DNA of 64,000 nt, taken from the IMG/VR virus record IMGVR_UViG_3300031578_000001; one strand, 5' to 3'. Positions 8,221 through 48,513 of this stretch are shown piece after piece. The notes below the pieces were generated by a model. The model saw only the letters and a program-made list of their open reading frames with translations. It made no database searches and was not told the origin of the DNA. This DNA comes from a virus. Numbering within the stretch: the first letter of the stretch is position 1; each line of letters starts with the position of its first letter. Made by a program: the position numbers and the translations under genes.

Positions 8221-8912
8221 CTCGGACCAATCAGTTGGGTACTATCTTGAAGATCGACGTAGACGGATTTCCGCTCACACACAGCCCATGATCTCGTCTT
8301 GATGAGACGGAATGCGTCCGGCCATTTCTTCTTGTTGGCCCTGTTCCCATTCACGCACGGGAAGAATTTGCATAGAGAACACCCGAGAGGGATGTTACCG
8401 ATGGGGACGTCCTTGTCGATTGCGACTCCATTCTTCCATGTCTGGCTGCATGCGTAATCCACCAGCTCGTTGAAGAAGTACCCTTGGTGTCCACGTACGT
8501 GCCGACCTACCACGGTCACGGAGTTCTCGAGGAGCGCCCGTTTAATCATTACGATTAGGTCTTCGTTCTTCTTCATGCCCCACTTGCTGTTAAACAAGAT
8601 GTTCAGGGCGTACTCGGAGTCTGACCAGGCCGGGATGATGCGCTTCTCCCCGTCGTTGAAAAACAGGACTGAGGCGCTGGCCAGGATGTTGAATGCGGTC
8701 AACTCCATTCTGGAGTTCGTGACGCTTGAGTAACCTTCCGCGTACTCGGTGCAGACCCGGATCCTGTCGAGCATCGGTATGGAGTCCTGGACTCGTGTCG
8801 TTACGAATGCAACCCCCGCGGATCCTTTAGAGAATACGCTCGCATTGTTGACGTTCACGGATCCGTCGAGGAACGCGATGATCTTAGGAACGGTCGGCAA
8901 CGAGGTCGACAT
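8211..8912 (-). CDS. rnhA: Ribonuclease HI with Cys-rich C-terminal extension
   Basis: AFLDGS, TNSRMELTA, WSDSEY, HVRGHQG..FNELVD. Confidence 0.85.
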   Translation of the reverse strand: MSTSLPTVPKIIAFLDGSVNVNNASVFSKGSAGVAFVTTRVQDSIPMLDRIRVCTEYAEGYSSVTNSRMELTAFNILASASVLFFNDGEKRIIPAWSDSEYALNILFNSKWGMKKNEDLIVMIKRALLENSVTVVGRHVRGHQGYFFNELVDYACSQTWKNGVAIDKDVPIGNIPLGCSLCKFFPCVNGNRANKKKWPDAFRLIKTRSWAVCERKSVYVDLQDSTQLIGPRCE

Positions 8913-9894
8913 ACTGCTCCTCCGGCTTGCTCACGAATTCAGCCCTCTCCTCACCCCACACGACCTTCCCCTCGTCGATGCGGATGTCGAAGATTCTGGA
9001 GACCTTCACGATCTGGAGCTCATCGTCCAGGTACATCGTGGACAGCGAGACTCTGGAGATATGCTGATCCTTCGAAGGCTGGGTCTCGAGTATCCAGATA
9101 ACCTCAGGCTTGATCGAATCCGCGTACTCACGAATCCTCTTCCACCGCTCAGAGTTCGGAACCTGGATGTTGACCATGTGGACGTTAACGTCGTCCATCA
9201 TGAGAAGGGTCTTGTGTGGTCTGGGGGTCTTCTCCAGGAACTCAGCCACGGCCGTCTCTGTTCTCGGTCTGATAGAGCCGCCTTCGATGAAGCCGTGGAC
9301 GATGATCGGCTGAAACTTCATCTTCTCGTTGAGTCTGGTGTCGATGATGGAATCTGTTCTCTCCTTCGCGAACTTGAACGAAAGTTCCCGAACGTGGGCC
9401 ATCTCGTTCATGTTGAGGAGGGCCAGGACGGCGGATGGCGTGTAGTTGAGAGACTCGTTGGTGAGGGGCCGCACGGTGAGCTGCGAGATGTCGTCATCCA
9501 GCTTGAGAGGAAGGTTACCGCCGATCCTCGCGGAGTACCGATTGAGGAGCCTGTTCAGCAGGTACTTCATCTCCGCGCTCAGCATCTTGAAGGCGTGAGC
9601 TGCGGGACGGATCTCGGGATCGAGGCCTCTTCCGGCCGGATGACAGCGGTCGACGAGGTACTGGCGCAGTTCGATGATCGTGAGGTTGATGTTTTTGATC
9701 TTGGCGAGGACCGTGATCTCCTCCTCGTTGAGTTCGACCACATCCCCCACCGTGAAGGCCTTGCCTCCGACGATGAAGTTATCGCCGTCGACGTACTGCG
9801 TGAGAACGTCGTTCTCGGACTTTAGGAACTCCAGTTCCTTGTTGAAGTTCATCAAGAGATTCTGGATGATCGGGTTCGATTGCGGGTCACTCAT
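8884..9894 (-). CDS. Hypothetical protein
   Basis: 336-aa ORF tiling the replication operon. Confidence 0.7.
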   Translation of the reverse strand: MSDPQSNPIIQNLLMNFNKELEFLKSENDVLTQYVDGDNFIVGGKAFTVGDVVELNEEEITVLAKIKNINLTIIELRQYLVDRCHPAGRGLDPEIRPAAHAFKMLSAEMKYLLNRLLNRYSARIGGNLPLKLDDDISQLTVRPLTNESLNYTPSAVLALLNMNEMAHVRELSFKFAKERTDSIIDTRLNEKMKFQPIIVHGFIEGGSIRPRTETAVAEFLEKTPRPHKTLLMMDDVNVHMVNIQVPNSERWKRIREYADSIKPEVIWILETQPSKDQHISRVSLSTMYLDDELQIVKVSRIFDIRIDEGKVVWGEERAEFVSKPEEQYVDLVADRS

Positions 9895-10966
9895 GGTTCT
9901 CCTTCCTCTCGAACAAATGGTCCAGGTTGTCTACCTCGGGAATCTCCTGCTCGGGGAGTTCGTTGTCCGTGTCCTTGAGCTGATCGAAGGTCGCTCGGGC
10001 CTCGTCGTACCCGGTGATCCGGATGACCCGGTCGATGTGTTTCCGGATCATGTAGACCGAGAGCTTCCCGTTCCACGAGATGGCCTCCTCGGCGTCTTGA
10101 TTCCATCGCTGGGCCACGATGAGGAGGATCTTCGCGAAGGCTGTCTTGGAGACTCCTCTGGACTCGGCCGCGGCAAGAGTATCGTTCATGGCCTTGGCGT
10201 AGCGAGGCGGAACGGAGGTCGGGGAGTTGAGGAACTCGACGTCGTCGCCGGATTTGATGTCGAATTGGCCACAGAGAAGGTGTAGGTAGTAGAAGAAGGC
10301 TTTACCTCCCCATTTTTCGGCGTTACGGGCGCTGATCCCGTGTGACGTTCGTTGCCGTTTCAGGGCCTGTTTCTCGATAGCTTTCTCGGATCGTTTCCCG
10401 GCGTCCTCAGCACACTGTTCCAAGGTCTTCCGTGGGCCTTTTCTCACGGCCTCTCCCTTCGTCTGACTCGCCGGAGTTTGCTCCGGCGATATGGATGTTT
10501 CTTGGATCTGTTTCATTGGATCTGTTTCTGTTAGCCAAAAAAGCTCACCCCCCACGCCAATTTGGCTCACCCCCCACGCCAAATTTGCGCACCCCCCGAA
10601 GCCAGGGGAGATTCGACTCGGGTCAAGGGGGAGCACATTTACGGCGCTGAGACGAACCGGAATGGTCTTGGGAAGGCCATTATCGTCGACCCATCGGCGA
10701 ACCAGGCCGTTATCCACGAGTTCCTTGATGTATCTCGATACGGACCGTCGACATATACCAAGTTCGTTCGCTATGGAGACGTTGGTGTACCAGATGGGTC
10801 TGGTCTTGTTGGGCCATCCTGAGGCGAAGATGATGAAGGCGTACAGCAGGCGTGCGCCTGGGGTTAGGGCCTTAGCCGTTATGATATCTATTGGAAAACG
10901 ACTGAACCTTATCTCGGGCGAGTCCGGCAAACAAGCGGACTCGCGCCGTTTTGCGAGCTCCATCAT
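9887..10966 (-). CDS. Phage replication initiator (N-terminal winged HTH)
   Basis: LTPGARLLYA....YTNVSIANELGICRRSVSRYIKELVDNGLV is an HTH_36-like pattern; the gene contains internal direct repeats. Confidence 0.7.
   Translation of the reverse strand: MMELAKRRESACLPDSPEIRFSRFPIDIITAKALTPGARLLYAFIIFASGWPNKTRPIWYTNVSIANELGICRRSVSRYIKELVDNGLVRRWVDDNGLPKTIPVRLSAVNVLPLDPSRISPGFGGCANLAWGVSQIGVGGELFWLTETDPMKQIQETSISPEQTPASQTKGEAVRKGPRKTLEQCAEDAGKRSEKAIEKQALKRQRTSHGISARNAEKWGGKAFFYYLHLLCGQFDIKSGDDVEFLNSPTSVPPRYAKAMNDTLAAAESRGVSKTAFAKILLIVAQRWNQDAEEAISWNGKLSVYMIRKHIDRVIRITGYDEARATFDQLKDTDNELPEQEIPEVDNLDHLFERKENHE
10502..10603. repeat. Iteron-like direct repeats inside the initiator gene (candidate origin)
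   Basis: gctcaccccccacgccaa(a)tttg x2 (10543, 10565) plus a partial third copy (10588); ttggatctgtttc x2 (10502, 10517). Confidence 0.6.
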
Positions 10967-11051: not shown

Positions 11052-11711
11052 TTATTTGAAGAAGATCTCTACGTCCTCGTTGAAGATGGTGAGATGGTTG
11101 CTCGCGGTGGACACCGACACCGTGCTTCCTTTGATGATAAGAAGGTTCTGGGCAATGACGTCGGATAGCACGCTGGCGCATCTGGAAGTGCGCGATGGCT
11201 TCGATGCCGTGGAGATCTCGATCTTGATTTCTTTCTTGACGAGGCTGATCTTGAAGATGGTGTACTTCATCGATCCGGATCTGTTCTTGATCGTTCTCGG
11301 GATCAGATCCATGATGCAACTTTGCATTATCGTCGTCGACATGGTCTGGTTGTGGATCGTGGACCGCTTCTTGTATGGATCGAGGGTCCTCGATCCGGTC
11401 TTCTCGGTACGTTTCCCGGGATTGAAGAAGTCCTTGTGCCACCTACGTACCGCATGCTCGTCCTCCGTGACGAAGCAATCGGGGACGACCGATGGGTAGA
11501 TCTTGTTCTTGAAGAGGCTGCGCATGGCCTGACTCATCTCCCGTGTGCTCGAGTATGACGTCTTGGATCTCTCGGGCATGAACCTGAACATCAGGATGCG
11601 GAGATACTTTTCAACTTCGATGGAGAAGTTGTTCGGAAGCACGCAGCCGGCCTCTTTGAGAGTTTTCTTCAGCAGGGGCACGTCGACCGCTTCGATGAGA
11701 TCCTTCGCCAT
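11052..11711 (-). CDS. Hypothetical protein
   Basis: 219-aa ORF with RBS, tiles the operon. Confidence 0.7.
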   Translation of the reverse strand: MAKDLIEAVDVPLLKKTLKEAGCVLPNNFSIEVEKYLRILMFRFMPERSKTSYSSTREMSQAMRSLFKNKIYPSVVPDCFVTEDEHAVRRWHKDFFNPGKRTEKTGSRTLDPYKKRSTIHNQTMSTTIMQSCIMDLIPRTIKNRSGSMKYTIFKISLVKKEIKIEISTASKPSRTSRCASVLSDVIAQNLLIIKGSTVSVSTASNHLTIFNEDVEIFFK

Positions 11712-11712
11712 C

Positions 11713-12894
11713 TCACACTCCTTTCAGGATCTGGGTTTCAACGTCGGCCCCCTCGCCGGTCTCCGCATTCAGTAGTCCGACGCCGGCGACCTCGAATCCG
11801 GCTTCCTTTGCCCGTTCTTCGACTGCCTTCGCGGCGGCTACGATGTCCGACTCTTTGGCACTTCCACTTATGGTGATCAGGGCTGCTGTTTCGTAGGTGT
11901 GGTCTTCCTCGGGTCGGCGGCAATGGTCGCAGGGCACCGTGCAGTCGATCGTTCCGTGGTCGGTGAAGTGTTGCGTGCCGATTGTGAACGGGTGGGGTTT
12001 GATTCTGCTTCCCGGAAGTCCATCATCAGGTCCGGTGTAGTGTCTCATGAGGCGTTGGATCTTCAGGTTCTCAGGCATGGCGACTTCGTGTTTCAGGACG
12101 ATCTCGAGGTCGTCTTCCTTCAGGTCGGGGAAGAAGGGCTTCATCCCGGCCGTTTTGCGCTTCTTGTCGAAGAGGTATCTGGCCAGTGGGTCGTTGGTGA
12201 AGATGTCCTTGCTGCACTTCTCCCTGCCCAGTGAGCAGGCCCACTCGAACGCCTTCTTGTCGTTGATGATGTGCGTGGCTCTCCGATACCGGCAGATCCA
12301 TTTCGGACCGCCTCCTTTGTAGAGGTGCGAGATGAGCACGCCGGCGATCTCGGCACGCCCGATGATCTTCACCTGGAGGCACGACTCCACGGCGTGGAGC
12401 AGCTGTTCCGGATCCATGTTAGGATCCATGACGGTGGGATTGTCGTAGTAGCCCATCCACCATGAGTGGAAGGGCTCTGTTCCCCTGTACTCATCGAACC
12501 CATCAACCGGCGTGTTGCTTTCGATGGGGACAGCGTCACCCCAGCACCCACCGACGTCGAATACGATCCCGTGCTCGTTGGCGTACTCACGCATCCTTTG
12601 GAGCGCCCATTTTCCGATCTCGTCGTCTGCGTCGTCGCCTCCCCTCGGATCCCCGTCTTTCAGGCCGAGGGATCTCTCGAACGTGCTGAGGCAGTTCCCG
12701 AAGGAGCCTGGTGAATTGAGCGAGAAGTAGTCGGCGAGGATCTGCATCTCTCCGGTGATCTTGCAACTGTCACACGTTTCCAGAGTGTGCCTACCGTTCA
12801 CCCATTTCATCTTGAGCCGCTTGTCCGGTGGTGTCTCGTGCATCCAGATCAGCGTGCTCGCGTTCAGGTGGTACTTCCTCAGGGGTACTCCCAT
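11713..12894 (-). CDS. Hypothetical protein (several Cys pairs)
   Basis: 393-aa ORF with RBS. Confidence 0.7.
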   Translation of the reverse strand: MGVPLRKYHLNASTLIWMHETPPDKRLKMKWVNGRHTLETCDSCKITGEMQILADYFSLNSPGSFGNCLSTFERSLGLKDGDPRGGDDADDEIGKWALQRMREYANEHGIVFDVGGCWGDAVPIESNTPVDGFDEYRGTEPFHSWWMGYYDNPTVMDPNMDPEQLLHAVESCLQVKIIGRAEIAGVLISHLYKGGGPKWICRYRRATHIINDKKAFEWACSLGREKCSKDIFTNDPLARYLFDKKRKTAGMKPFFPDLKEDDLEIVLKHEVAMPENLKIQRLMRHYTGPDDGLPGSRIKPHPFTIGTQHFTDHGTIDCTVPCDHCRRPEEDHTYETAALITISGSAKESDIVAAAKAVEERAKEAGFEVAGVGLLNAETGEGADVETQILKGV

Positions 12895-13204
12895 CGATCT
12901 GCTCCTTCACTCCATCGACCAGTTTGAATCCGGCGATTTTCTCGCACTCCTTCAACCACTCATCGCACTCGAAGAACTCGACGTCGACGTCCATGTTCGC
13001 CAGGTGGCAGAGTTGGATGAGGATGAGGCAGACCGGTGCAGACGTGTTCTGCTTGTCAGTGCCCGGTCCGAAGGCCCTGTAGGCCTCGGTGAGAGCCTTG
13101 GATACGGCGAGCCCGTTACAGGCCCCATGAAAAATATAGAGGGCATCGGATGCGGCCTTGCGTTGCACGGCCGAGGATCCAGACGATATCAATTCCGTGG
13201 ACAT
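12791..13204 (-). CDS. Hypothetical protein
   Basis: RBS ggaggaatc upstream of ATG; overlaps the next gene by about 100 bp. Confidence 0.55.
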   Translation of the reverse strand: MSTELISSGSSAVQRKAASDALYIFHGACNGLAVSKALTEAYRAFGPGTDKQNTSAPVCLILIQLCHLANMDVDVEFFECDEWLKECEKIAGFKLVDGVKEQIDGSTPEEVPPEREHADLDARDTTGQAAQDEMGER

Positions 13205-13213
13205 GATTCCTCC

Positions 13214-13432
13214 TTAAGTCTGTCCCGACTGTGTCTCCAGTAAGACGCGGAGGGAGAAGAGGATCATCTTTTGGTTGAGCAGGATGCTGATCTGCCCCAA
13301 GAGGATCTCTGCTGTAACGATGCTGGTGGAAGCGGATCCGAACGTGACCATCGCGGCGGTCTCTTTGATCTGGGCGATCCTCTCGTCGATCAGGGGGATG
13401 GCGCTTTTGAGTGTATCTAACGCCTCAGACAT
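13214..13432 (-). CDS. Hypothetical protein
   Basis: 72-aa ORF with RBS. Confidence 0.6.
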   Translation of the reverse strand: MSEALDTLKSAIPLIDERIAQIKETAAMVTFGSASTSIVTAEILLGQISILLNQKMILFSLRVLLETQSGQT

Positions 13433-13463
13433 CAGAAAATCTCCTACTTAGATGCAGAGATTC

Positions 13464-13622
13464 CTAAGAGGAAGCGGGACCGTTTCCTTCGGGGTCGCAC
13501 GAGACTTCGATTTTGTACCCATTGTCCAACTTGAACCACGGGAATCCGTCCGTGCCTACGCCAGTCTCGACGATCGTTCGGCCTTTCAAAGATTCCATGT
13601 ATTTCTTCATGTTGTCGTTCAT
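13464..13622 (-). CDS. Small phage protein MNDNMKKY...SCDPEGNGPASS, possibly frameshifted at its 3' end
   Basis: Manual translation; 52 aa; RBS gaggaag. Confidence 0.55.
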   Translation of the reverse strand: MNDNMKKYMESLKGRTIVETGVGTDGFPWFKLDNGYKIEVSCDPEGNGPASS

Positions 13623-13696
13623 CGTCTTCCTCGCACCAAACGGTTAGGTACAACGAGAGGGCGGAGCGCCCGATTGGACGCCCCGCCCATGATTAC

Positions 13697-13951
13697 TTAT
13701 CCCCTCGACTTGGAACTCGTCTTGAAGTAGATGTGATCACCGTCCTCGAGGACAGTGCTCTCGTCCATGATCTCGCCGTTGACCAGGGCGGCCATGTCGT
13801 TGGTGATATTCATCTCATCGGAAAACCGGAATCGGATCTGCTTGACGGTGACGATCTCTCCCTCATTGAGGGTGAGTTCGATCGGTTCCATGTCTTCCCC
13901 GAGATCGCTGTTGGGTTCCCGTTCGATCGTGATGACTCTTGTGAGATCCAC
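13697..13951 (-). CDS. Ubiquitin-like (beta-grasp) protein ending in Gly
   Basis: 84 aa; ALVNG......LEDGDHIYF..SKSRG-COOH; GTG start with RBS gggaggag. Confidence 0.75.
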   Translation of the reverse strand: MDLTRVITIEREPNSDLGEDMEPIELTLNEGEIVTVKQIRFRFSDEMNITNDMAALVNGEIMDESTVLEDGDHIYFKTSSKSRG

Positions 13952-14657
13952 GGCTCCTCCCTTTCGTAACGAGGGACTTCTGAAGAAGGGGAATCATCTT
14001 CCCCGTTCTTGTGTCCACACGGATTTCGTTGATCGATGGCTTGGCCTTCGATAGCACATGATGAACGAGGATTTCCATGGCTACCGCCGTTGCCTTGTTG
14101 GCCAGAGCCGTCTGAGGCCCCGACTCGAGGCATCCTCCCTCGCCCGGAAGCGGATCCTTATCCGCGAGGATTTCCGGTGCGATGTGGGAGACTTTCGGAA
14201 GTATGTTGCGTCCGCTTTTACGGACGTATGCTTGCGCCTGGCCGCCGTGATTGTCGTTCCCTCCGACGACATAGATGGCGTTCTTTTTACGGGCTACCTC
14301 GGTCTCGAGGAATACCCTTACACCGTCTCTGTCGACACATCCGAGGAACAGATAGCATCTATCGATCCAGAGCGACCTATGCTTCTCCAGGGTTTCGTGG
14401 TTGAGGTACTCAGGCACGGCATGGATCATGACGTGGCCATCCAGGTCGAACCGTTCCTTGGCCATCGTTGCGATCATGATGGCCTTGTTCTTTCCGATAG
14501 CCGACGGGAAGAACTGCCTGGTCAGATTATTCAGTTCGACCGAATCTCCATCGATGACGTAAAGAGACGACTTCTTCTCAAGGGAGAGTAGATACCTGAT
14601 GATGTCTTCCCACAGATGGTAGGTGATTCCACCTGCTCCAAGGATCGCTACTTTCAT
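13863..14657 (-). CDS. ThiF/E1-like Ubl-activating enzyme
   Basis: MKVAILGAGG, IDGDSVELNNLTRQ, GKNKA, GCVD, GGN, GCLESGPQ..ANKA. Start at 14657 overlaps the JAB stop. Confidence 0.9.
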   Translation of the reverse strand: MKVAILGAGGITYHLWEDIIRYLLSLEKKSSLYVIDGDSVELNNLTRQFFPSAIGKNKAIMIATMAKERFDLDGHVMIHAVPEYLNHETLEKHRSLWIDRCYLFLGCVDRDGVRVFLETEVARKKNAIYVVGGNDNHGGQAQAYVRKSGRNILPKVSHIAPEILADKDPLPGEGGCLESGPQTALANKATAVAMEILVHHVLSKAKPSINEIRVDTRTGKMIPLLQKSLVTKGRSRGSHKSHHDRTGTQQRSRGRHGTDRTHPQ

Positions 14658-15802
14658 TGTCTCTCCTTCGAGTCGAAGTCCGGATCCGCATCCATGTCGT
14701 CGATCATGAAGTCGATCTGCTCGCTGATGGCTATATCCAGTTCCTCGAGATGTTCCATGGGAGCGATCGTTGAGAGGATCTCCACGAACCTGTCGTAGCA
14801 ACCGTGTTCCACGAAATACGTGGCGAAGACGCGCAGGACATCGTCGTGTGTCCCGTCTGCTGGTGGCCTGATCCCGGTCTGGGTGAACGTGAATATCCTC
14901 TCGTGGGGCTTCTCGGTTTTGGGGAGGTCAGCCGACATCTTTTTGACCGAATGCACCTTGAACTTGTCCGTGGCCAGTTCCGTCGCCTCTTCTTCGGTCT
15001 CGGTCCAGTAGACGACGTTGCCGGTGCGCTTGCTCAGGAGGAGGAATCCCGTCTTTTTACTCCTGACTTCTTCCAGCGGAAGGATCCTCTCCATGAACCA
15101 TCGGTACTCTTCGTCAGTGACGCGGTGGCTCGTGACCGATTCCGTAATCTTATTGATGCGGATGTCATGGCGTTCGCCCGCACCGGTGATGGATCCTACG
15201 ATGGACGGGGTATCATGATTCAGGTTTCCGATGACGATATAGATTCCCTCGCTCTCCATCTCGTTTTCGTCGTCGGTTCTCGAGAATCCGGCTCCGAACG
15301 CGCCATGGGAATGGATGGTTCCCGAGTGTCTGCCCTCGTAGCAGTATTCCAGATAGGCCGATCCGATGATCCCGAACTTAGCCCGATCGAGGACGTAGGA
15401 CTGGTGCTCCATATCCCACTTGAGAATGACGATCATCTCGGACTTATAGTCCTCGTAGGCTCTTCTGAAGATCCCCACGACTCTCGCAATGATGCTCATC
15501 GGGATGGGATGGATATGCTTGATGAAGAATCCAGGGTGGATCTTCCTCAGGGACGGGGCGACGTTCACGGGTCTGACTACGTGGAACTCGGCGGCTCTGT
15601 CCGGTCCTCCCACGTGCATGACCTTATAGATGCCGTCGTTTCCCGCCACGTAGGCGAAGTGTTTCTTGGACTGCTCAATGGCGTCCTGCACCGTTGTGTA
15701 TGGACGCTCGTAGAGGTCGTCCAAAGATACTTGTCTGGGCGTTCTCGAAGACGAATCCGATTTCGGTATTGTCCTTTGCTGCTGCTGCATTCGAGACTCC
15801 AA
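14654..15802 (-). CDS. JAB/MPN metallopeptidase (PRTRC protein A-like, deubiquitinase family)
   Basis: YVAGNDG, SEMIV, GTIHSHG...FSRTDDENE, GIYIVIG. Confidence 0.85.
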   Translation of the reverse strand: MESRMQQQQRTIPKSDSSSRTPRQVSLDDLYERPYTTVQDAIEQSKKHFAYVAGNDGIYKVMHVGGPDRAAEFHVVRPVNVAPSLRKIHPGFFIKHIHPIPMSIIARVVGIFRRAYEDYKSEMIVILKWDMEHQSYVLDRAKFGIIGSAYLEYCYEGRHSGTIHSHGAFGAGFSRTDDENEMESEGIYIVIGNLNHDTPSIVGSITGAGERHDIRINKITESVTSHRVTDEEYRWFMERILPLEEVRSKKTGFLLLSKRTGNVVYWTETEEEATELATDKFKVHSVKKMSADLPKTEKPHERIFTFTQTGIRPPADGTHDDVLRVFATYFVEHGCYDRFVEILSTIAPMEHLEELDIAISEQIDFMIDDMDADPDFDSKERQ

Positions 15803-15998
15803 TCATTTCCTTGATGATCTCTATAGCCCCGACCTCCTCGAGACGTTTGATGAACCTGTCGCGGGCTACGGGATAATGTTTGCCGGTATCGGTCTTCTTC
15901 ACGGCATCAAGTAGAGACTCGATCCTGTTTCTCGGTTCGGTCCAGATGGTCGCATTTTTGAGTCTCATAATGCAATTCTCGAATTCGATATAGTTCAT
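15675..15998 (-). CDS. Hypothetical protein within the Ubl cassette
   Basis: ATG overlaps the E2 stop; 3' end overlaps the JAB 5' end. Confidence 0.5.
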   Translation of the reverse strand: MNYIEFENCIMRLKNATIWTEPRNRIESLLDAVKKTDTGKHYPVARDRFIKRLEEVGAIEIIKEMIGVSNAAAAKDNTEIGFVFENAQTSIFGRPLRASIHNGAGRH

Positions 15999-16681
15999 TT
16001 AGCCCTCTCCACCAGTTTCCCGAATGTCTCGGTCTGGACCCACGTGAGACTCGTGATATCACTCCACTCCTTGCCAGCGTCCTTGGTCCATTTCGCCCAG
16101 CACTCGAAAGTGTCAACGGGTTTTTCGATCGGACCCTTTCCTTCCACCATTTCTGCTGGAAGATTGTCGATACCGCCTTTTAGATGATCGCTGTGGGCGG
16201 ACTTGTTGACCCAGGTAACGATCTTCGAGACGATCTCTGAGATCGGACCGGACCTTCCAACCTCGCTTACGAATCCGGTGCCCATGCACATTTCTCCGTC
16301 GAGACTGATATTCGGAAGTGGGACAATATATAGCGGGTCGTAGAAGTTGTGGATCTGGTTCATTGCGAACCGGAGATAGTAATTCACGATGAGATCGCCG
16401 GTGAACACAAAGGCGAAGACACGCCACGGAATCGCGATGGTATAGAACTTTCTCCCGTATTTGAGGACCTGCTTCTCGGGAGGTCGTTGGACGAAGTAGA
16501 GAGTTTTGTTCGTATTCTTCTTGAAGACGATAGTTCCGTACGGCAGGATCGGGGTCTCTATGTTCTTGATCTGGAGCGCCTTTATGGCGTCTTCGATGGA
16601 CACCGTCTTTCCGCGGGTAATGGTGAGCTGTCTCACGGTGTCATCCGGGCAGAAGAGAACGTAGCTGCCTTCATCGAGCAT
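15995..16681 (-). CDS. Prokaryotic E2 family D-like protein (PRTRC protein B-like)
   Basis: ILPYG, AIPWRVF, PLYIVPLPNISLDGEMCMG carrying the conserved Cys. Confidence 0.8.
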   Translation of the reverse strand: MLDEGSYVLFCPDDTVRQLTITRGKTVSIEDAIKALQIKNIETPILPYGTIVFKKNTNKTLYFVQRPPEKQVLKYGRKFYTIAIPWRVFAFVFTGDLIVNYYLRFAMNQIHNFYDPLYIVPLPNISLDGEMCMGTGFVSEVGRSGPISEIVSKIVTWVNKSAHSDHLKGGIDNLPAEMVEGKGPIEKPVDTFECWAKWTKDAGKEWSDITSLTWVQTETFGKLVERAK

Positions 16682-17685
16682 GTAAGATTCTCCAACTCAT
16701 CAAACTTTGCCTTCAGAGCCGCCCCCTTGTTCTGGTCGAGACTGGTGATGAACGCGATCCTGCCTTTCCACTGATCCATCGGGACCGGGATGATGGCCTT
16801 CTTTCTTTTCGCTTTATTGAGGATTTTTCTCGCCTCCTGATTCAAACCGAGAAGTGTGACCAGGCCGTCCTTCTTTTCGATTCCCTGGGCCTGCCTGATC
16901 TGTTTTCTGAACTCGTTGTCGAGATAAAAACCTGCGGGTACTATGGCCGCCCGCAGGTCCGTGATCGCGTTGTGGAGGTCTGCTCTCATTGATCTCCAGT
17001 ACGATCTTTTAGGTCCGATCTTGTCGTTGATCTGCACCCCGCAGACGATGAGCCGGGCCGGCTTATGGTGAAATCTCGTTTTGTTTTCGTTGATCTCGAA
17101 TCCTTCGGACTCGAGGATGTAGCGCACCTGGTAGAGGAGTTTCCAGACTTCTCTGGAATCGCACCCGAAGGTGAGGTTGTCGCAGTACGCGCTGAACACG
17201 ACAGGGCAATGATGTTCTCTGTTCCAACGGATGATGAGTCCACGGATAAGGGAGACGATTCGTTTCATGGCGACCGACGACAGGAATGGACTTGTCGGCG
17301 CCCCTTGCGGGAGAGCCTTTTTCCCGTCGATCATGTCGAAGCAGGTGTCCTTGATCTCGTCGATGAGCCACTTCGGAGCCCTCTCGTAGGAGAGAGACTC
17401 CTCCACGTGGTGTTCCAAGACCGAATGGAAGAAATCGCTGATATCGATTTTCAGAATGCAGTCCGGTGAACGTAACGTCCCATCGGCTTGCTTGAGCAGG
17501 AGGGCCTTGGCGTTGGTCCTTACGGACCGGCCCCGCATGTAGGCGTGGATGTGGTATCCCGGGTGGATCTTTAGGCGTTTGAGCCATCCCAGGATTTCGA
17601 GCTGTTTCTTCTTCAGCTTCGCATCCGGAATCCTGATCTCCCGGAATCCCCCACCTCGTTTCTGAATCTTGACGATCTGGTACAT
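16633..17685 (-). CDS. Retron-like reverse transcriptase with non-canonical YCDN motif
   Basis: KRGGGFREIRIP, GRSVRTNA, KIDISDFFHSV, LPQGAPTSPFLS, FSAYCDNLTF, INENKT, VCGVQIN (VTG-like). Confidence 0.9.
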   Translation of the reverse strand: MYQIVKIQKRGGGFREIRIPDAKLKKKQLEILGWLKRLKIHPGYHIHAYMRGRSVRTNAKALLLKQADGTLRSPDCILKIDISDFFHSVLEHHVEESLSYERAPKWLIDEIKDTCFDMIDGKKALPQGAPTSPFLSSVAMKRIVSLIRGLIIRWNREHHCPVVFSAYCDNLTFGCDSREVWKLLYQVRYILESEGFEINENKTRFHHKPARLIVCGVQINDKIGPKRSYWRSMRADLHNAITDLRAAIVPAGFYLDNEFRKQIRQAQGIEKKDGLVTLLGLNQEARKILNKAKRKKAIIPVPMDQWKGRIAFITSLDQNKGAALKAKFDELENLTCSMKAATFSSARMTP

Positions 17686-17916
17686 GTCTCCCCCTTAGAG
17701 CGCAGCGATGAGCGCACGCAGGACCGTGAGAATCACGCCAGCCTCCTTTCTGAGAAACGTACGAAAACCCATAGGGCTGGAGAGGGAGCCAGCACGTGGC
17801 CGGCTCCCTCTCCAATGTGTGGAGGAGTAGTTTTATTAGACTCTCTCGGGTAAAAGGCCAGAGAGAGTAGGGGCGGAGCCCATTGCTGGACCCCGCCCCA
17901 TGGTGATCGCGGAGGA
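17686..17916 (-). ncRNA. Candidate structured leader (msr/msd-like) upstream of the RT
   Basis: Three stem-loops: 17870-17899 (13 bp, GCAA loop on minus strand), 17840-17868, and 17778-17814 (13 perfect bp). Confidence 0.4.
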
Positions 17917-40209: not shown

Positions 40210-41496
40210 TCAGCGGATCGCAACACCAAGACCATCCTGCATGAGATTCTTTACGGCATTGGTCTCCCTTTCCTCGCTCATCCCGCATTCGTCACATACG
40301 AATATCCGTTTACTGAGCGGGAATTCTTCTTTCACGTATCCACATGAACTGCATTTCTTACTCGACGGGAAACCAGTATTCAACACCAGAAGGTCTGATC
40401 CGAATTTGGGACACTTGTATTCAAGCATTTTCCAGAAGATTCCCCATCCCTTATCGGCTATGGCGCGGCTGTACTTCTTCTGTTCAAGGAGGCGATCGAT
40501 CCTCCAGTCTTCGATGATGATCGTTCTGAAGTTCTTAGCGAGATAGGTGGATAGTTTATTAAGGAAGTCAGCCCGTACGAATCGAACTCGGCGATGGATG
40601 AGTGCTCTTCTGGTTCTGCTTTTCTTATAGTTGTTGGATACAGGCTTCACCGGTTTCCTGTCGGGCCTCATGGGCCTTCCGAGCCTACGTCTCGCCACTT
40701 CCCTATCTACCCGTATCAGCTTCTTGAGAGCATGATCGAGAGGGGAAGGGTGATCTATCCTGTATGTATTCCCGTGGACAGATACGGATCCGTCAAATTT
40801 GTCCGAGTCCATCTCAGGCGTTTCCCCGTCAGATCGCATGATCGTGAATGGAAATTTGAGGCCGAGGTGAACGGCTATGGCTGGCCCGTTCCTCATTCCG
40901 GGTTTAGCCGATTTATCCTTGCAGCGAAATGATATATACCATCGATCCACATCACGCTTCACCGTGACACCTATGATGTCTCCTCTGGCGACGTGTGTTG
41001 TTTCTTTCGTTCTGATGGTCTTCAGTGTGGGAAGGGTTACAGATCGATCGACCGCCCTGATGGTGCGGCCGTAGAGATGGAAAGACTCCTCCGACGGAAT
41101 CGCTTTCCTCCATTTGGGGAATCCAACTTTCCTTCTCTGCCCCTTAGGCTTCTTTCGGTTCGAGAAGAACGCTGAGATTGCTTTATCGAGATCCCTGAAC
41201 GCACCTTCAACAGTGCCTCTCGCAGTTCCGAGTATTCCGACTTCGATAAGTCGCTCTTTTCCACGATCACTGTTTATCCATACTGTCCACTCCTTCTGGA
41301 GGGATATTGATTTCGGCATGCGTTCCCTATTGTCTTTCGGTAGATTGAGCCAGTCTTTGATCCTTCCGAGTGCCCAGTTCCAGGCGTATCTGGCCATTCT
41401 TGCATGGCGCTTCATTTCCGTTATCTGGGCATTGTTCGGGTCGAGTTCGTATTTGAGAACCTTGACTCGGTCTGGTTGCGCATCGGTCTTAGCCAT
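40210..41496 (-). CDS. tnpB: TnpB/Cas12f-like protein, predicted nuclease-dead
   Basis: IS605 OrfB HTH-like N-terminus (ARYAWNWAL), GFPKWRK, RuvC-I AVHLGLK, RuvC-II IIIEDW, PSSKKCSSCG/CDECG, RuvC-III EERETNAVKNL. Confidence 0.9.
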   Translation of the reverse strand: MAKTDAQPDRVKVLKYELDPNNAQITEMKRHARMARYAWNWALGRIKDWLNLPKDNRERMPKSISLQKEWTVWINSDRGKERLIEVGILGTARGTVEGAFRDLDKAISAFFSNRKKPKGQRRKVGFPKWRKAIPSEESFHLYGRTIRAVDRSVTLPTLKTIRTKETTHVARGDIIGVTVKRDVDRWYISFRCKDKSAKPGMRNGPAIAVHLGLKFPFTIMRSDGETPEMDSDKFDGSVSVHGNTYRIDHPSPLDHALKKLIRVDREVARRRLGRPMRPDRKPVKPVSNNYKKSRTRRALIHRRVRFVRADFLNKLSTYLAKNFRTIIIEDWRIDRLLEQKKYSRAIADKGWGIFWKMLEYKCPKFGSDLLVLNTGFPSSKKCSSCGYVKEEFPLSKRIFVCDECGMSEERETNAVKNLMQDGLGVAIR

Positions 41497-46718: not shown

Positions 46719-48170
46719 CTACAAACCGAGGTTTCCCAGCTGGTATCCGAGCCAGAGCGCATGGCCCACATCGGACACCAGGCGCTCTTCGATGATCGTG
46801 TCCAGGATCTCCTGGCGTGAGCCTACGATTTCCAGGATAGCCGGACCGTTCGGGGCCATGAGGGTAGCCTTGAACTCGTAGTTAGGGGCATGATCGAACG
46901 TCCATTGGCCTTTTTCGTCCCACCATTCCCGCACCCTCCGGTGCTTCTCCACGATCTCGAGAGCCGGAGCCCAGTCGCGTTCGTAGATGTGGGCCGACTG
47001 GGAGATGATGGTGAGGTCGCCGAGAGCGTAGCGCTTGTCGTCCTGGTAATCGCCCTTGCAGGCCGCGGTCAGAGTTCTCACGAGATCCTGTAACCTCATC
47101 AGGCCATACGCATTCTCCGGCCATCCGAAGTACATATCGTTGGACCTGATGGTGGCCGTCATATGGAGGGCGCCGTTCATGATCCTGAACCAGAGATGGT
47201 TCAGGCACGGACTATGCTTCCTCGTCCACTTCGGATCCCAGAGGCTGATGACCGCGGATCGTGAGGACTCATCTTTAGCCAGCTTCTGTGCTACCTTCTG
47301 GATCTGATCGACGCCGAAATAGCCTCGGATCAGGTTACCGTACGTGTAGGTCACGTCCTGGTCCTCGAAGTTGGTGATGAGCTTCGGATAGTAGGCTTCC
47401 AGGTGATCGTGATCGAATGGAATGTACTCCGGGATATCACCTGGTTCAACTTTCAGTTTCTGATCGCTGATCACGACGGCGAGGTTCATGAGTTCCCTGC
47501 TTGGTTCACCGTAGTGGGTGTCGATCACGGTGCCGAATTTCATGATCTGGTAGAGTAACTCCAGGTAGCCCTCTTCAATGGTCTTGACCCGGATGGGGTG
47601 GAGGTTGTTCGGAGATGGGTAGGCGATCGGGTTGATCCTTGGAGGGGCTATCTCGGTCGCCGGCATGTCCCTTGGGTCGTCGCTGGTGAAGCGCGGGTCG
47701 GTCAGGGTGCTCACGAGGAGTTCGGCCTTTCTGAGTTCCACGACCTTGATGTTCTTGAGAAGTGTGACGATCATGCTGAGCGGGATGTTGTCCCAGATTC
47801 TGATGCTGTTCCAGTCGGGCTCGTCGATCGTGTAGTAGTTGTCCTTGTGGACGAGGCTCTCTGGACGCCTCTTCATCTCGAGGAATGCCTCGCTCGCCCC
47901 CGATAGGTCTGGGCCACAGAATATGATGTTCCGGATGGAAGGGGCCGCGAGCAGGTTTCGGATCATGATGTCGATCCCACGGGAGGCCGTATAGAGGTTC
48001 CCGATGATCGCGATGTTCGCGAGGGGGCTGTCCTCGCCCACGGTCTTGCGCCACGCCTCGTCGAGCTTGCTGAGGAAGACTTCCCTCTGTGCCCACCCGC
48101 ACACCACTGCGATCGATGATTTTCTGTTCCCGACGATGACCTGGTCAGGGAGGAACGGAGGCCACTTCAT
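46719..48170 (-). CDS. thyA: Thymidylate synthase-like protein fused to an N-terminal MtrA-like domain
   Basis: IAIIGNLYT..GI..MIRNLLAAPSIR (MtrA-like); YTYG, RSAVISLWDP, PCL, RSNDMYFGWPEN, SAHIYE. The start may be 48185. Confidence 0.8.
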   Translation of the reverse strand: MKWPPFLPDQVIVGNRKSSIAVVCGWAQREVFLSKLDEAWRKTVGEDSPLANIAIIGNLYTASRGIDIMIRNLLAAPSIRNIIFCGPDLSGASEAFLEMKRRPESLVHKDNYYTIDEPDWNSIRIWDNIPLSMIVTLLKNIKVVELRKAELLVSTLTDPRFTSDDPRDMPATEIAPPRINPIAYPSPNNLHPIRVKTIEEGYLELLYQIMKFGTVIDTHYGEPSRELMNLAVVISDQKLKVEPGDIPEYIPFDHDHLEAYYPKLITNFEDQDVTYTYGNLIRGYFGVDQIQKVAQKLAKDESSRSAVISLWDPKWTRKHSPCLNHLWFRIMNGALHMTATIRSNDMYFGWPENAYGLMRLQDLVRTLTAACKGDYQDDKRYALGDLTIISQSAHIYERDWAPALEIVEKHRRVREWWDEKGQWTFDHAPNYEFKATLMAPNGPAILEIVGSRQEILDTIIEERLVSDVGHALWLGYQLGNLGL

Positions 48171-48234
48171 GAAAAAACCTTTCATACGAAAAAACCCGAT
48201 GCACTTGGCATCGGGTACAGGAGGACGACGGCTT

Positions 48235-48513
48235 CTATCCGAACTCGGGTGGAGCTGGAAGGCGCGTGACCTCCTGTTTGACTGTGGTGAGCATCGGGAT
48301 CTGGTTTCCCTGGCTATCCAGGACGTACGTGAGGAACACGGCACCGCTCACCTGCTGCGCCCGTCCATCGCACGATTCCCACCCCTGGTAAAAGCGGAGG
48401 ATGGGTTGGGATTGCCCGTCGGATCTCTTGTTGAGTCCGGGGGCAAACTTGCTGAGCGGTATCATCGCTCTCCTCCCTTTAAAAAAGAAACGGGAATGAA
48501 ACTTCTTCCTCAT
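48235..48513 (-). CDS. Hypothetical protein
   Basis: Follows the promoter motif at 48517. Confidence 0.45.
   Translation of the reverse strand: MRKKFHSRFFFKGRRAMIPLSKFAPGLNKRSDGQSQPILRFYQGWESCDGRAQQVSGAVFLTYVLDSQGNQIPMLTTVKQEVTRLPAPPEFG

Follow-up and report, generated by a model that had tools for sequence, protein, structure and literature searches.

The 64,000-nt stretch of DNA that we analyzed (hereafter the window) carries six co-oriented open reading frames on the minus strand between positions 13697 and 17685. From 5' to 3' they encode a reverse transcriptase (RT), an E2-like protein, a small protein X, a JAB/JAMM metallopeptidase, an E1-like enzyme and a ubiquitin-like protein (Ubl); all features described below lie on the same strand. 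The genes are tightly packed: the 3' end of the RT gene and the 5' end of the E2 gene have 49 nt in common, the E2/X and JAB/E1 junctions each share an ATGA, X and JAB overlap by 116 nt if JAB starts at ATG 15790, and E1 and Ubl overlap by 89 nt if Ubl starts at GTG 13951. Within the block we found neither a minus-strand terminator nor a convincing promoter. With these data we could confirm the layout of six genes with overlapping stops and starts that the original prediction had described. The window also encodes a primase, DnaB, a class II ribonucleotide reductase, thymidylate synthase, a topoisomerase and a tail/virion protein, and we assign it to a large uncultured phage.

Predicted conjugation proteins

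The E1 gene (13863–14657) codes for a minimal ThiF/MoeB-like adenylating enzyme of 264 amino acids with a basic tail. This protein matches ThiF (E = 3e-8), and its PDB matches include MccB, Uba1, Uba2, UBA5, MoeB and ThiF. An alignment of relatives shows that G7/G9/G10, D36/D38, R47/Q48, D109 and C176, the cysteine of the motif GC-LESG, are invariant. The JAB protein (14654–15790) has N- and C-terminal extensions and an uncertain start: ATG 15790 (SD GGAG) is favored, and TTG 15802, where the listed reading frame begins, or TTG 15724 are possible. It matches Prok-JAB (E = 6e-5), the JAMM motif H-S-H-x7-S-x2-D is invariant (H160, S161, H162, S170, D173), and the upstream Glu is kept. The β-grasp Ubl (13697–13951) ends in KSRG-stop and comprises either 84 amino acids from GTG 13951, preceded by the SD sequence GGAGGA, or 64 amino acids from ATG 13891. 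It matches ThiS-like (E = 0.012) and TGS (E = 5e-4) families and resembles atlas ThiS/MoaD clusters (features 0.91; structure TM 0.72–0.76, model pLDDT 0.77). The terminal Gly is kept, with the relatives ending in (E/R/Q)KG. Sequence comparison supports the assignments of E1, JAB and Ubl.

The predicted E2 (15995–16681, 228 amino acids) is supported more weakly than these three proteins. Against Pfam Prok-E2_D it scores 14.2 bits (E = 0.036), below the gathering cutoff of 25 bits. A profile of the E2 family (A6) matches the E2 of L098 (2e-13) and also P0189, which themselves score 42.4 and 32.7 bits for Prok-E2_D. Since the profile matches proteins that pass the Pfam cutoff, the window E2 can be linked to Prok-E2_D as a putative distant relative. 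With the structure model (pLDDT 59), the top rows from VIA-align were nearly all E2/UBC, UEV or RWD folds (Z ≤4.9), Foldseek returned nothing significant, and the E2 profile had no sequence match in the PDB. P123, N124 and C132 (LPNI...C132, in MCMG) are invariant among relatives; LPN takes the place of HPN, and the alignment contains no conserved His after C132. The catalytic residues of E2, JAB and E1 and the terminal Gly of Ubl, which the original prediction had read as intact, are conserved in the alignments of relatives. We consider it probable that the proteins constitute a working conjugation cascade.

Protein X (15675–15998) has no recognizable relatives in Pfam, PADLOC or NCBIfam. A small open reading frame occupies the same position in the related phages L086 (75 amino acids) and L087 (141 amino acids), with ATGA coupling at both ends.

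The reverse transcriptase and its association with the cassette

The RT gene (16633–17685) encodes a retron-type protein of 350 amino acids, which matches RVT_1 (E = 6e-19) and the PADLOC retron RT models (E = 4e-39 to 1e-35). The NCBIfam models for retron St85/Ec67 are its top matches, below cutoff, and the closest PDB sequences to its profile are those of retrons Ec83, Ec86, Ec67 and Ec78. A structure model (pLDDT 85) retrieved retron RTs as the top Foldseek matches (17/17). By sequence and modeled fold, this protein belongs to the retron RT family. Its clade contains invariant YxDN, NAxxL and VCG motifs (YCDN, NAKAL and VCG in the window) instead of the retron signature YxDD, NAxxH and VTG, as well as a Ser-rich tail and a conserved, clade-specific C-terminal domain of ~100 amino acids. 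The Asn of YxDN (N170) is invariant in 17 sequences (16 relatives and L086) down to 37% identity. PQGAPTSP, the Asp of motif A, the Lys of motif D and the first Asp of motif C are invariant too; this conservation argues that the RT is still under selection. Since the polymerase site is remodeled, the RTs of this clade probably make little or no cDNA, and the YxDN change may mean that the protein is not a polymerase at all.

Two related IMG/VR lineages, L086 and L087/L088, are syntenic with the window phage yet very divergent (23–57% protein identity). Both keep the block from RT to Ubl, with overlapping stops and starts and a micro-ORF upstream of RT, and the RT and E2 genes overlap or share an ATGA in three of three lineages (window, L086, L087). 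This pattern reflects vertical retention in one phage lineage, not independent joinings. Five more metagenomic contigs (15614, 4869, 3895, 71542 and 2740 bp) appear to carry RT with E2, and once E1, as judged from contig-length fingerprints; in L002 the RT is followed by an E2-like N-terminus. For RT-bearing contigs of 16.9, 50, 61, 13.5 and 12.9 kb, a search that also failed to recover known relatives at ≤45% identity retrieved no E2 or E1. An unrelated AT-rich phage, L119, contains the order E2-JAB-E1-RT with a different retron-type RT that overlaps the 3' end of E1 by 83 nt. This arrangement looks like a second, independent joining of an RT to the Ubl genes, with a placement on a long branch. 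Co-occurrence of RT and Ubl genes in other genomes, the absence of which was to count against the original prediction, is therefore found in L086, L087/L088 and L119. Relatives were seen only in viral contigs, with none among the 185,579 prokaryote genomes scanned.

E2-JAB-E1-Ubl also occurs without RT in about 20 other large-phage lineages, which makes the RT an addition to an uncharacterized phage cassette. Because most phage cassettes of this kind are RT-less, conjugation would not need the RT. These RT-less cassettes, together with the vertical relationship of L086 and L087 to the window phage, are what would be expected if the RT were a stand-alone, retron-like conflict gene upstream of an unrelated cassette, sharing its transcript and co-inherited with it, yet functionally independent. 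We consider this explanation unlikely. It is opposed by the RT/E2 overlap or shared ATGA in all three lineages, by a pairing that outlasts divergence to 23–38% identity while neighbors change, by the joining of another RT to E1 in L119, and by the derived motifs and C-terminal domain that the RT lineage has acquired. The phylogenies also speak against it: all Ubl-linked RTs of the window lineage fall into one 20-row clade (SH-aLRT 91), the E1s from cassettes with an RT also group into a single clade (support 84), and the two trees have the same branching order, albeit with few taxa and moderate support (84–91). The sequence data indicate that the genes are translationally coupled and co-inherited across deep divergence, and the block from RT to Ubl is very probably a single co-inherited unit. 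We conclude that the pairing of an RT with a complete Ubl-conjugation set in one tight phage operon is real; in the literature searched, we found no published description of it. That the RT is functionally coupled to the cascade is the reading toward which we lean.

The leader and the comparison with retrons

Retrons consist of an RT, an msr/msd noncoding RNA and an effector, and comprise 13 types (Mestre et al. 2020, PMC7736814). The window operon is like them in its RT family, by sequence and fold, in a structured region directly upstream and in accessory genes that co-evolve with the RT in one operon, as collinear, overlapping genes and agreeing RT and E1 branching. It differs by the motifs YxDN, NAxxL and VCG, by its host, which is a phage genome, and by an accessory module made up of an entire enzyme cascade. 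Neither PMC7736814 nor PMC8632793 mentions ThiF, JAB or ubiquitin-like partners for any of the 13 types; the original prediction likewise stated that no characterized retron type is known to have a Ubl-pathway effector.

The 231-nt leader directly upstream of RT is strongly structured (z = -5.8). A 13-bp hairpin with a GCAA loop (17871–17898) directly follows the stop codon of the upstream gene and is one of two GGGCGGRG...CYCCGCCC hairpins in the window, where 0.02 are expected; it has a counterpart in L086 (6303–6332), and a GCAA-loop hairpin also occurs in L002. The second hairpin (17840–17868; loop UGGCCUUUUACCC) contains the core CUCUCUGGNCUUUUAC, which is conserved in L086. Next lies a single-stranded linker, ACUACUCCUCCA (17820–17831), which is anti-Shine–Dalgarno-like and of which ACUCCUCCA is conserved in L086; for this linker we infer a possible regulatory role. 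A long hairpin of 16 bp (17778–17814) has a counterpart of the same place and shape but different sequence in L086 (6362–6416) and is missing in L087. Finally, a hydrophobic 13-codon leader ORF (17695–17736; MILTVLRALIAAL) with the SD sequence AGGAGG stops 9 nt short of the RT start. Such an ORF precedes RT in three lineages: the L086 version, MILAVLKALLAAL, shows seven synonymous and three conservative changes relative to the window, and L087 encodes MLLLALSAICAVI. In L002, a 12-codon ORF abuts the RT start. Downstream of the block, a hairpin at 13659–13688 directly follows the Ubl stop codon and closely repeats the stem of the 5' hairpin; none is present after the L086 Ubl.

A true retron would use this leader as msr/msd template, the RT would make msDNA, and the RT–msDNA complex would restrain the Ubl cascade as effector. 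The retron-type RT fits this description, as do the canonical YxDD of the RTs in L087 (NAAPH, VCG, YSDD), L002 and L119, the structured leader and its L086 counterpart (z = -4.6), which keeps the shape of the long hairpin. The description is at odds with the YxDN of the window clade, which also lacks the His of NAxxH, and with a leader that has no shared a1/a2-type flanking inverted repeats and no Rfam match. Furthermore, a structured leader is absent from L087, the most distant relative (z = -1.15), and part of the candidate RNA consists of the conserved 13-codon ORF; together with its SD and anti-SD partners, this segment is more suggestive of a translational leader. The derived motifs, these features of the leader and the predominance of RT-less cassettes weaken the classical retron reading, which we regard as improbable. 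The term retron-like in the original prediction applies to the RT protein alone; the leader shows no msr/msd hallmarks.

Other ubiquitin-like systems and a working model

Several known systems resemble the cassette. PRTRC families (NCBIfam TIGR03735–03742) are among the top matches, with E1 as PRTRC_ThiF (E = 1.8e-12) and JAB as PRTRC_A (E = 3.6e-6), and the Prok-E2_D/Prok-JAB/ThiF neighborhoods of plasmids and ICEs have the same content of separate E2, JAB, E1 and small Ubl. We rejected PRTRC membership because E1 (47.1 vs 144.75 bits) and JAB (26.7 vs 101.8 bits) score far below the curated cutoffs (TIGR03735/03736) and no ParB-related gene was seen; the other PRTRC models matched none of the six proteins, and the window element is a phage with an RT rather than a conjugative element. 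Operon type 6d (Iyer, Burroughs and Aravind 2006, PMC1779556) contains a Ubl, a JAB with an N-terminal domain, an E1-like protein, an E2-like protein that lacks the His of HPN, and an α-helical protein that diverges rapidly. Compared by description, this five-gene content matches ours, including an E2 with LPN and, in the place of X, a small fast-evolving extra protein. The window differs in that its E2 lacks a conserved His after the Cys and the JAB alignment shows no conservation of the JAB-N Arg/Trp; an RT is mentioned nowhere in PMC1779556. The anti-phage operons Bil type I/II (BilABCD) likewise have separate Ubl, E2, JAB-type deubiquitinase and E1 genes, but they are bacterial, differ in gene order and lack an RT. 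Bil membership was rejected because the conserved His near the E2 Cys, a Bil trait, is missing in the window, and PADLOC gave no matches for E2, JAB or Ubl.

In type II CBASS, Cap2/Cap3 similarly provide E1/E2 chemistry and a JAB as a regulatory layer on a nucleotide-handling enzyme. There, Cap2 is an E2-E1 fusion, a free Ubl is lacking and the partner is a CD-NTase instead of an RT; in our case no RT-E2 fusion was found, and the window E1 matches the PADLOC E1-E2 (Cap2) models weakly (E = 0.005). Since Cap2/Cap3 prime the CD-NTase (PMC11601603), by analogy the RT or its partner could be the Ubl target, with E1/E2 attaching Ubl as an on/off switch and JAB reversing the modification. The conserved unique C-terminal domain and Ser-rich tail of the RT clade would suit such a target, and the operon encodes no E3 or other target-recognition protein. 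This analogy is strained by the separate Ubl of the window, where CBASS conjugates the C-terminus of the enzyme itself; no conserved acceptor site was identified, and RT-less cassettes must act on other targets. We judge this possibility to be quite unlikely.

As our best explanation, which we give about an even chance as a whole, the leader, 13-codon ORF and six genes would form one early-expressed phage operon in which a complete ubiquitin-like conjugation system has permanently taken up an RT of retron descent as a subunit. E1 would adenylate the terminal Gly of Ubl and take it onto Cys176; Cys132 of E2 would receive Ubl and pass it to lysines of target proteins, and JAB would remove or edit the conjugates. 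We propose this chemistry because it is established for the E1, E2 and JAMM families. The RT would bind nucleic acid and serve as a regulatory or specificity subunit that makes conjugation depend on a cue from RNA or DNA, and fast-evolving X could be an adaptor. That the RT is a sensor or gate rather than a substrate is a tentative suggestion, and we are more doubtful still that the remodeled RT acts as E3-like specificity or sensor subunit of the virus-encoded cascade. The purpose would likely be conflict with other phages or host defenses, by superinfection exclusion or counter-defense. If the RT does act as such an E3-like specificity or sensor subunit, a nucleic-acid cue would turn on or direct protein tagging, and RT-type nucleic-acid sensing would be directly linked to ubiquitin-like conjugation.

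The GC content of the block is not anomalous. The small genes that flank it differ between the window phage and L086 and L087/L088.

Gene content and layout of the block

The original prediction placed six co-oriented genes at 13697–17685 of the window, in the order RT (a retron-type reverse transcriptase), E2, X (a small protein), JAB, E1 and Ubl, and we recovered these open reading frames on the minus strand at exactly those coordinates. The described overlaps are also there: RT and E2 share 49 nt, E2/X and JAB/E1 each share an ATGA, and E1 extends 89 nt into Ubl. Ubl starts with a GTG at 13951 behind the Shine–Dalgarno sequence GGAGGA; the best candidate for the JAB start, the only unclear start among the six genes, is the ATG at 15790 with GGAG six nucleotides upstream. 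Inside the block, the GC content of which is unremarkable, we found neither a minus-strand terminator nor a convincing promoter.

The catalytic residues that had been described as intact are all present. E1, a ubiquitin-activating-like protein, matches the ThiF family (3e-8) and, under the cutoff, PRTRC_ThiF (1.8e-12); its relatives in the PDB include MccB, Uba1, Uba2, UBA5, MoeB and ThiF, and the Gly-rich loop, the Asp and Arg motifs and Cys176 are conserved. JAB contains a complete JAMM motif. The ubiquitin-like protein Ubl matches ThiS/MoaD clusters in language-model features as well as in predicted structure, and its C-terminal residue is Gly. The ubiquitin-conjugating-like E2 is the least secure protein identification of the block, with a weak family match (Prok-E2_D, 0.036). 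In its alignment Pro-Asn and Cys132 are invariant, and the predicted topology is compatible with the UBC fold. In a structure search independent of Foldseek, nearly all of the best-ranked entries were E2, UEV or RWD proteins, at Z scores of at most 4.9, and the E2 family profile extends to phage E2s and to metagenomic proteins above the Pfam Prok-E2_D cutoff. For protein X we detected no relatives and no family, Atlas or fold match.

The gene content of this cassette is that of operon type 6d, which consists of Ubl, JAB, E1, an E2 in which the His of HPN is missing and a helical protein that evolves fast (Iyer et al. 2006, PMC1779556). PRTRC and Prok-E2_D are its best family matches, all under curated cutoffs, and the window E2 is not Bil-like. 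In L086, a divergent syntenic locus from IMG/VR, the last ~100 codons of JAB (8435–9970) form a Cys-rich end that resembles a zinc ribbon or RING and has numerous CxxC pairs; the window JAB lacks this end and carries an acidic tail instead.

The reverse transcriptase and its leader

The RT matches Pfam RVT_1 (6e-19) and many of the PADLOC retron RT models (~1e-36 to 1e-39), with no type preferred. Among solved structures, the RT family profile finds retron RTs first (Ec83 at 1e-29; Ec86, Ec67 and Ec78 at ~1e-24), and the top 17 Foldseek matches to the AlphaFold model (pLDDT 85) are all retron RTs. Group II intron RTs are reached at 1e-10 only, some fourteen orders of magnitude worse in E-value; since we also found no maturase and no match to an intron RNA, we rejected this assignment. 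A diversity-generating retroelement (DGR) was rejected as well, as there are no template/variable repeats and retrons are the best match of the RT.

At the active site, Y[C/A/S]DN is found in the window RT as well as in 16 relatives with identities down to 37%, and YxDD in none of them. In the same proteins NAxxL replaces the retron signature NAxxH and VCG replaces VTG, while the other active-site positions are invariant. Because YxDD is retained in the basal Ubl-linked RTs (L087 and L002) and in the RT of L119, a phage locus with a different gene arrangement, the Asn of YxDN is a derived state under purifying selection. This pattern of conservation suggests that the polymerase is altered or minimal and that the gene is not decaying. 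The conserved Asp-to-Asn exchange offers a naturally occurring test of which activities, other than ordinary polymerization, are open to retron-type RTs.

The region upstream of the RT bears on the possibility that the block is a classical retron with the Ubl cascade as its effector. The 231-nt leader of the window folds strongly (z = -5.8), and corresponding hairpins occur in the L086 leader, where the sequence of the long one differs; no such structure was found in the leader of L087. We found no shared a1/a2-like repeats in these leaders and no match in Rfam. The prediction of a retron-like RT holds for the protein, by sequence and predicted fold. A hydrophobic ORF of 13 codons, with a strong Shine–Dalgarno site, ends 1–9 nt upstream of the RT start in the window, in L086 and in L087; its window and L086 copies are separated by seven synonymous changes and three conservative ones, and its L002 counterpart has 12 codons. 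A CUCCUCC linker and hairpin arms are predicted to be able to pair with the Shine–Dalgarno site of this ORF, an arrangement that resembles translational control more than a retron template. When the leaders of the window and L086 were folded jointly, misaligned hairpins spoiled the consensus. A stretch of 12 nt in which the leader linker is complementary to the ribosome binding site of the upstream gene was discarded, as it is not kept in L086. The two ends of the block each carry a GC-rich hairpin motif that has no further copy in the window; the 3' copy is missing in L086.

To our knowledge, the retron effectors described to date are single toxins or nucleases. In agreement with the original statement that no characterized retron type is known to have a Ubl pathway as its effector, ThiF, JAB and ubiquitin are unmentioned in the retron classification (PMC7736814) and in a review of prokaryotic RTs (PMC8632793). 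A full-text literature search for the combination of RT and Ubl returned only general reviews and one CRISPR-discovery paper, with both terms used once.

Conservation and possible function of the RT–Ubl pairing

Scans of IMG/VR with E1 and JAB as queries identified 32 contigs from roughly twenty distinct phages. All 32 keep the order E2-JAB-E1, and many also encode a Ubl ending in (E/R/Q)KG. An RT lies within 10 kb of the cassette in only three of these phages. The RT and Ubl genes do co-occur elsewhere: RT-E2-X-JAB-E1-Ubl is present in L086 (125-kb contig, 28–45% identity to the window) and, in the same order, in the identical loci L087/L088 (193- and 92-kb contigs, 23–37% identity), with ATGA or a longer overlap at nearly every junction. 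Since L086 and L087 are syntenic with the window phage, sharing in the same order the reductase, helicase and initiator genes and several on the structural side, they show that the block has been kept for a long time, not that it was invented repeatedly. On the 1.8-kb locus L002, the RT is directly followed by an E2-like N-terminus. Metagenomic relatives of RT and E2 (once E1) occur on contigs of equal size (15614, 4869, 3895, 71542 and 2740 bp), which we read as the same contigs. Non-detection of E2 or E1 on several long RT-bearing contigs (16.9, 50, 61, 13.5 and 12.9 kb) is uninformative, because the same word-based searches missed L086 proteins at 38–44% identity.

A phylogeny of the RTs groups the Ubl-linked members of the window lineage into a single 20-row clade (SH-aLRT 91). 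The E1s of RT-bearing cassettes make up a single clade in their own tree (support 84) and branch in the same order as the RTs. Further scans with an alignment of YxDD-type RTs recovered L087/L088 only, a broader E1 alignment returned the same loci as before, and a metagenome scan with the RT alignment yielded mostly generic retron RTs (~30% identity). Single-protein queries found no close relatives in IMG/VR. Two scans of 185,579 prokaryote genomes detected no relative, although relatives do occur in IMG/VR, and GenBank phages gave distant ThiF or RT matches only, never both together. We found no RT–E2 fusion; the long E2-family proteins lack an RVT_1 domain.

A different arrangement occurs in L119 (7244–13591 of IMGVR_UViG_3300006056_000027), an AT-rich 121-kb phage contig on which E2-JAB-E1 precedes a retron-type RT (450 aa, YADD) that has an 83-nt overlap with the end of E1. 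A possible Ubl (63 aa) lies upstream, and there are no flanking genes in common with the window phage. This RT falls outside the window clade, on a long branch. L119 is probably a second, independent joining of RT and cassette. Among the loci L089–L122 there is a sizeable family of E2-JAB-E1(-Ubl) cassettes that lack an RT, on phage contigs of 40–370 kb (for example L096 7381–11836, L098 9154–11844 and L100 7515–12311). Several of these cassettes have the E2 domain at the start of a protein of 824–1220 aa with an unassigned C-terminal part. An exhaustive profile search of metagenomes gave 2,082 E2-family clusters at E <= 1e-3.

One interpretation of these distributions is that RT and Ubl cassette are independent modules. 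The best-supported reading is a single unit that combines Ubl tagging, reversal by JAB and an RT as regulatory or aiming subunit. By analogy with established E1, E2 and JAMM enzymes, the conserved residues suggest that a thioester relay from E1 to E2 would tag proteins with Ubl and that JAB would reverse this tagging. The gene linkage suggests that the RT may serve as a co-evolving subunit that binds nucleic acid and regulates or aims conjugation; X may be a fast-evolving adaptor. Alternatively, the RT could be the substrate of conjugation, as in type II CBASS. The bacterial ubiquitin-like systems CBASS Cap2/3, Bil and Bub are known as host defenses; this operon puts a retron-type RT and a ubiquitin-like system, joined, on the side of the virus. 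If the RT controls or aims conjugation, the block would represent a new coupling of nucleic-acid sensing to protein modification, and would also provide an entry point to the phage E2-JAB-E1-Ubl cassettes, an unstudied family of large size (>2,000 E2 clusters in metagenomes).

Flanking genes and phage setting

The small genes flanking the block differ between the window and its relatives; for the 179-aa gene upstream, no homolog was detected in L087. Downstream, proteins of 393 and 219 aa without family match follow the cassette in the window (11052–12894, minus strand) and in L086 (10990–12806), at 45% and 30% identity, respectively. They do not follow the L087 cassette and are probably mere syntenic neighbors. 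Because the 393-aa gene directly follows Ubl in L086, the ~800 nt between these genes in the window (12895–13696, minus strand) look like a small-gene insertion. This stretch contains ORFs of 52, 72 and 137 aa; those of 52 and 72 aa have good Shine–Dalgarno sites.

The window is part of a 182-kb contig, and its phage origin was borne out by genes for a primase, a DnaB-like helicase, a class II ribonucleotide reductase, a replication initiator, a thymidylate synthase, a topoisomerase and a tail/virion protein. The thymidylate synthase match covers the C-terminal third of a 541-aa protein (46719–48344, minus strand), the N-terminal 300 aa of which are without assignment. A 428-aa transposase-family protein (phrog_506, 7e-71) is encoded within the phage genome at 40210–41496 (minus strand). 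Finally, the replication-initiator gene contains three tandem copies of a 22-nt repeat (GCCAAAnnnGCnCACCCCCCAC) at 10534–10599, which look like iterons of an internal origin.
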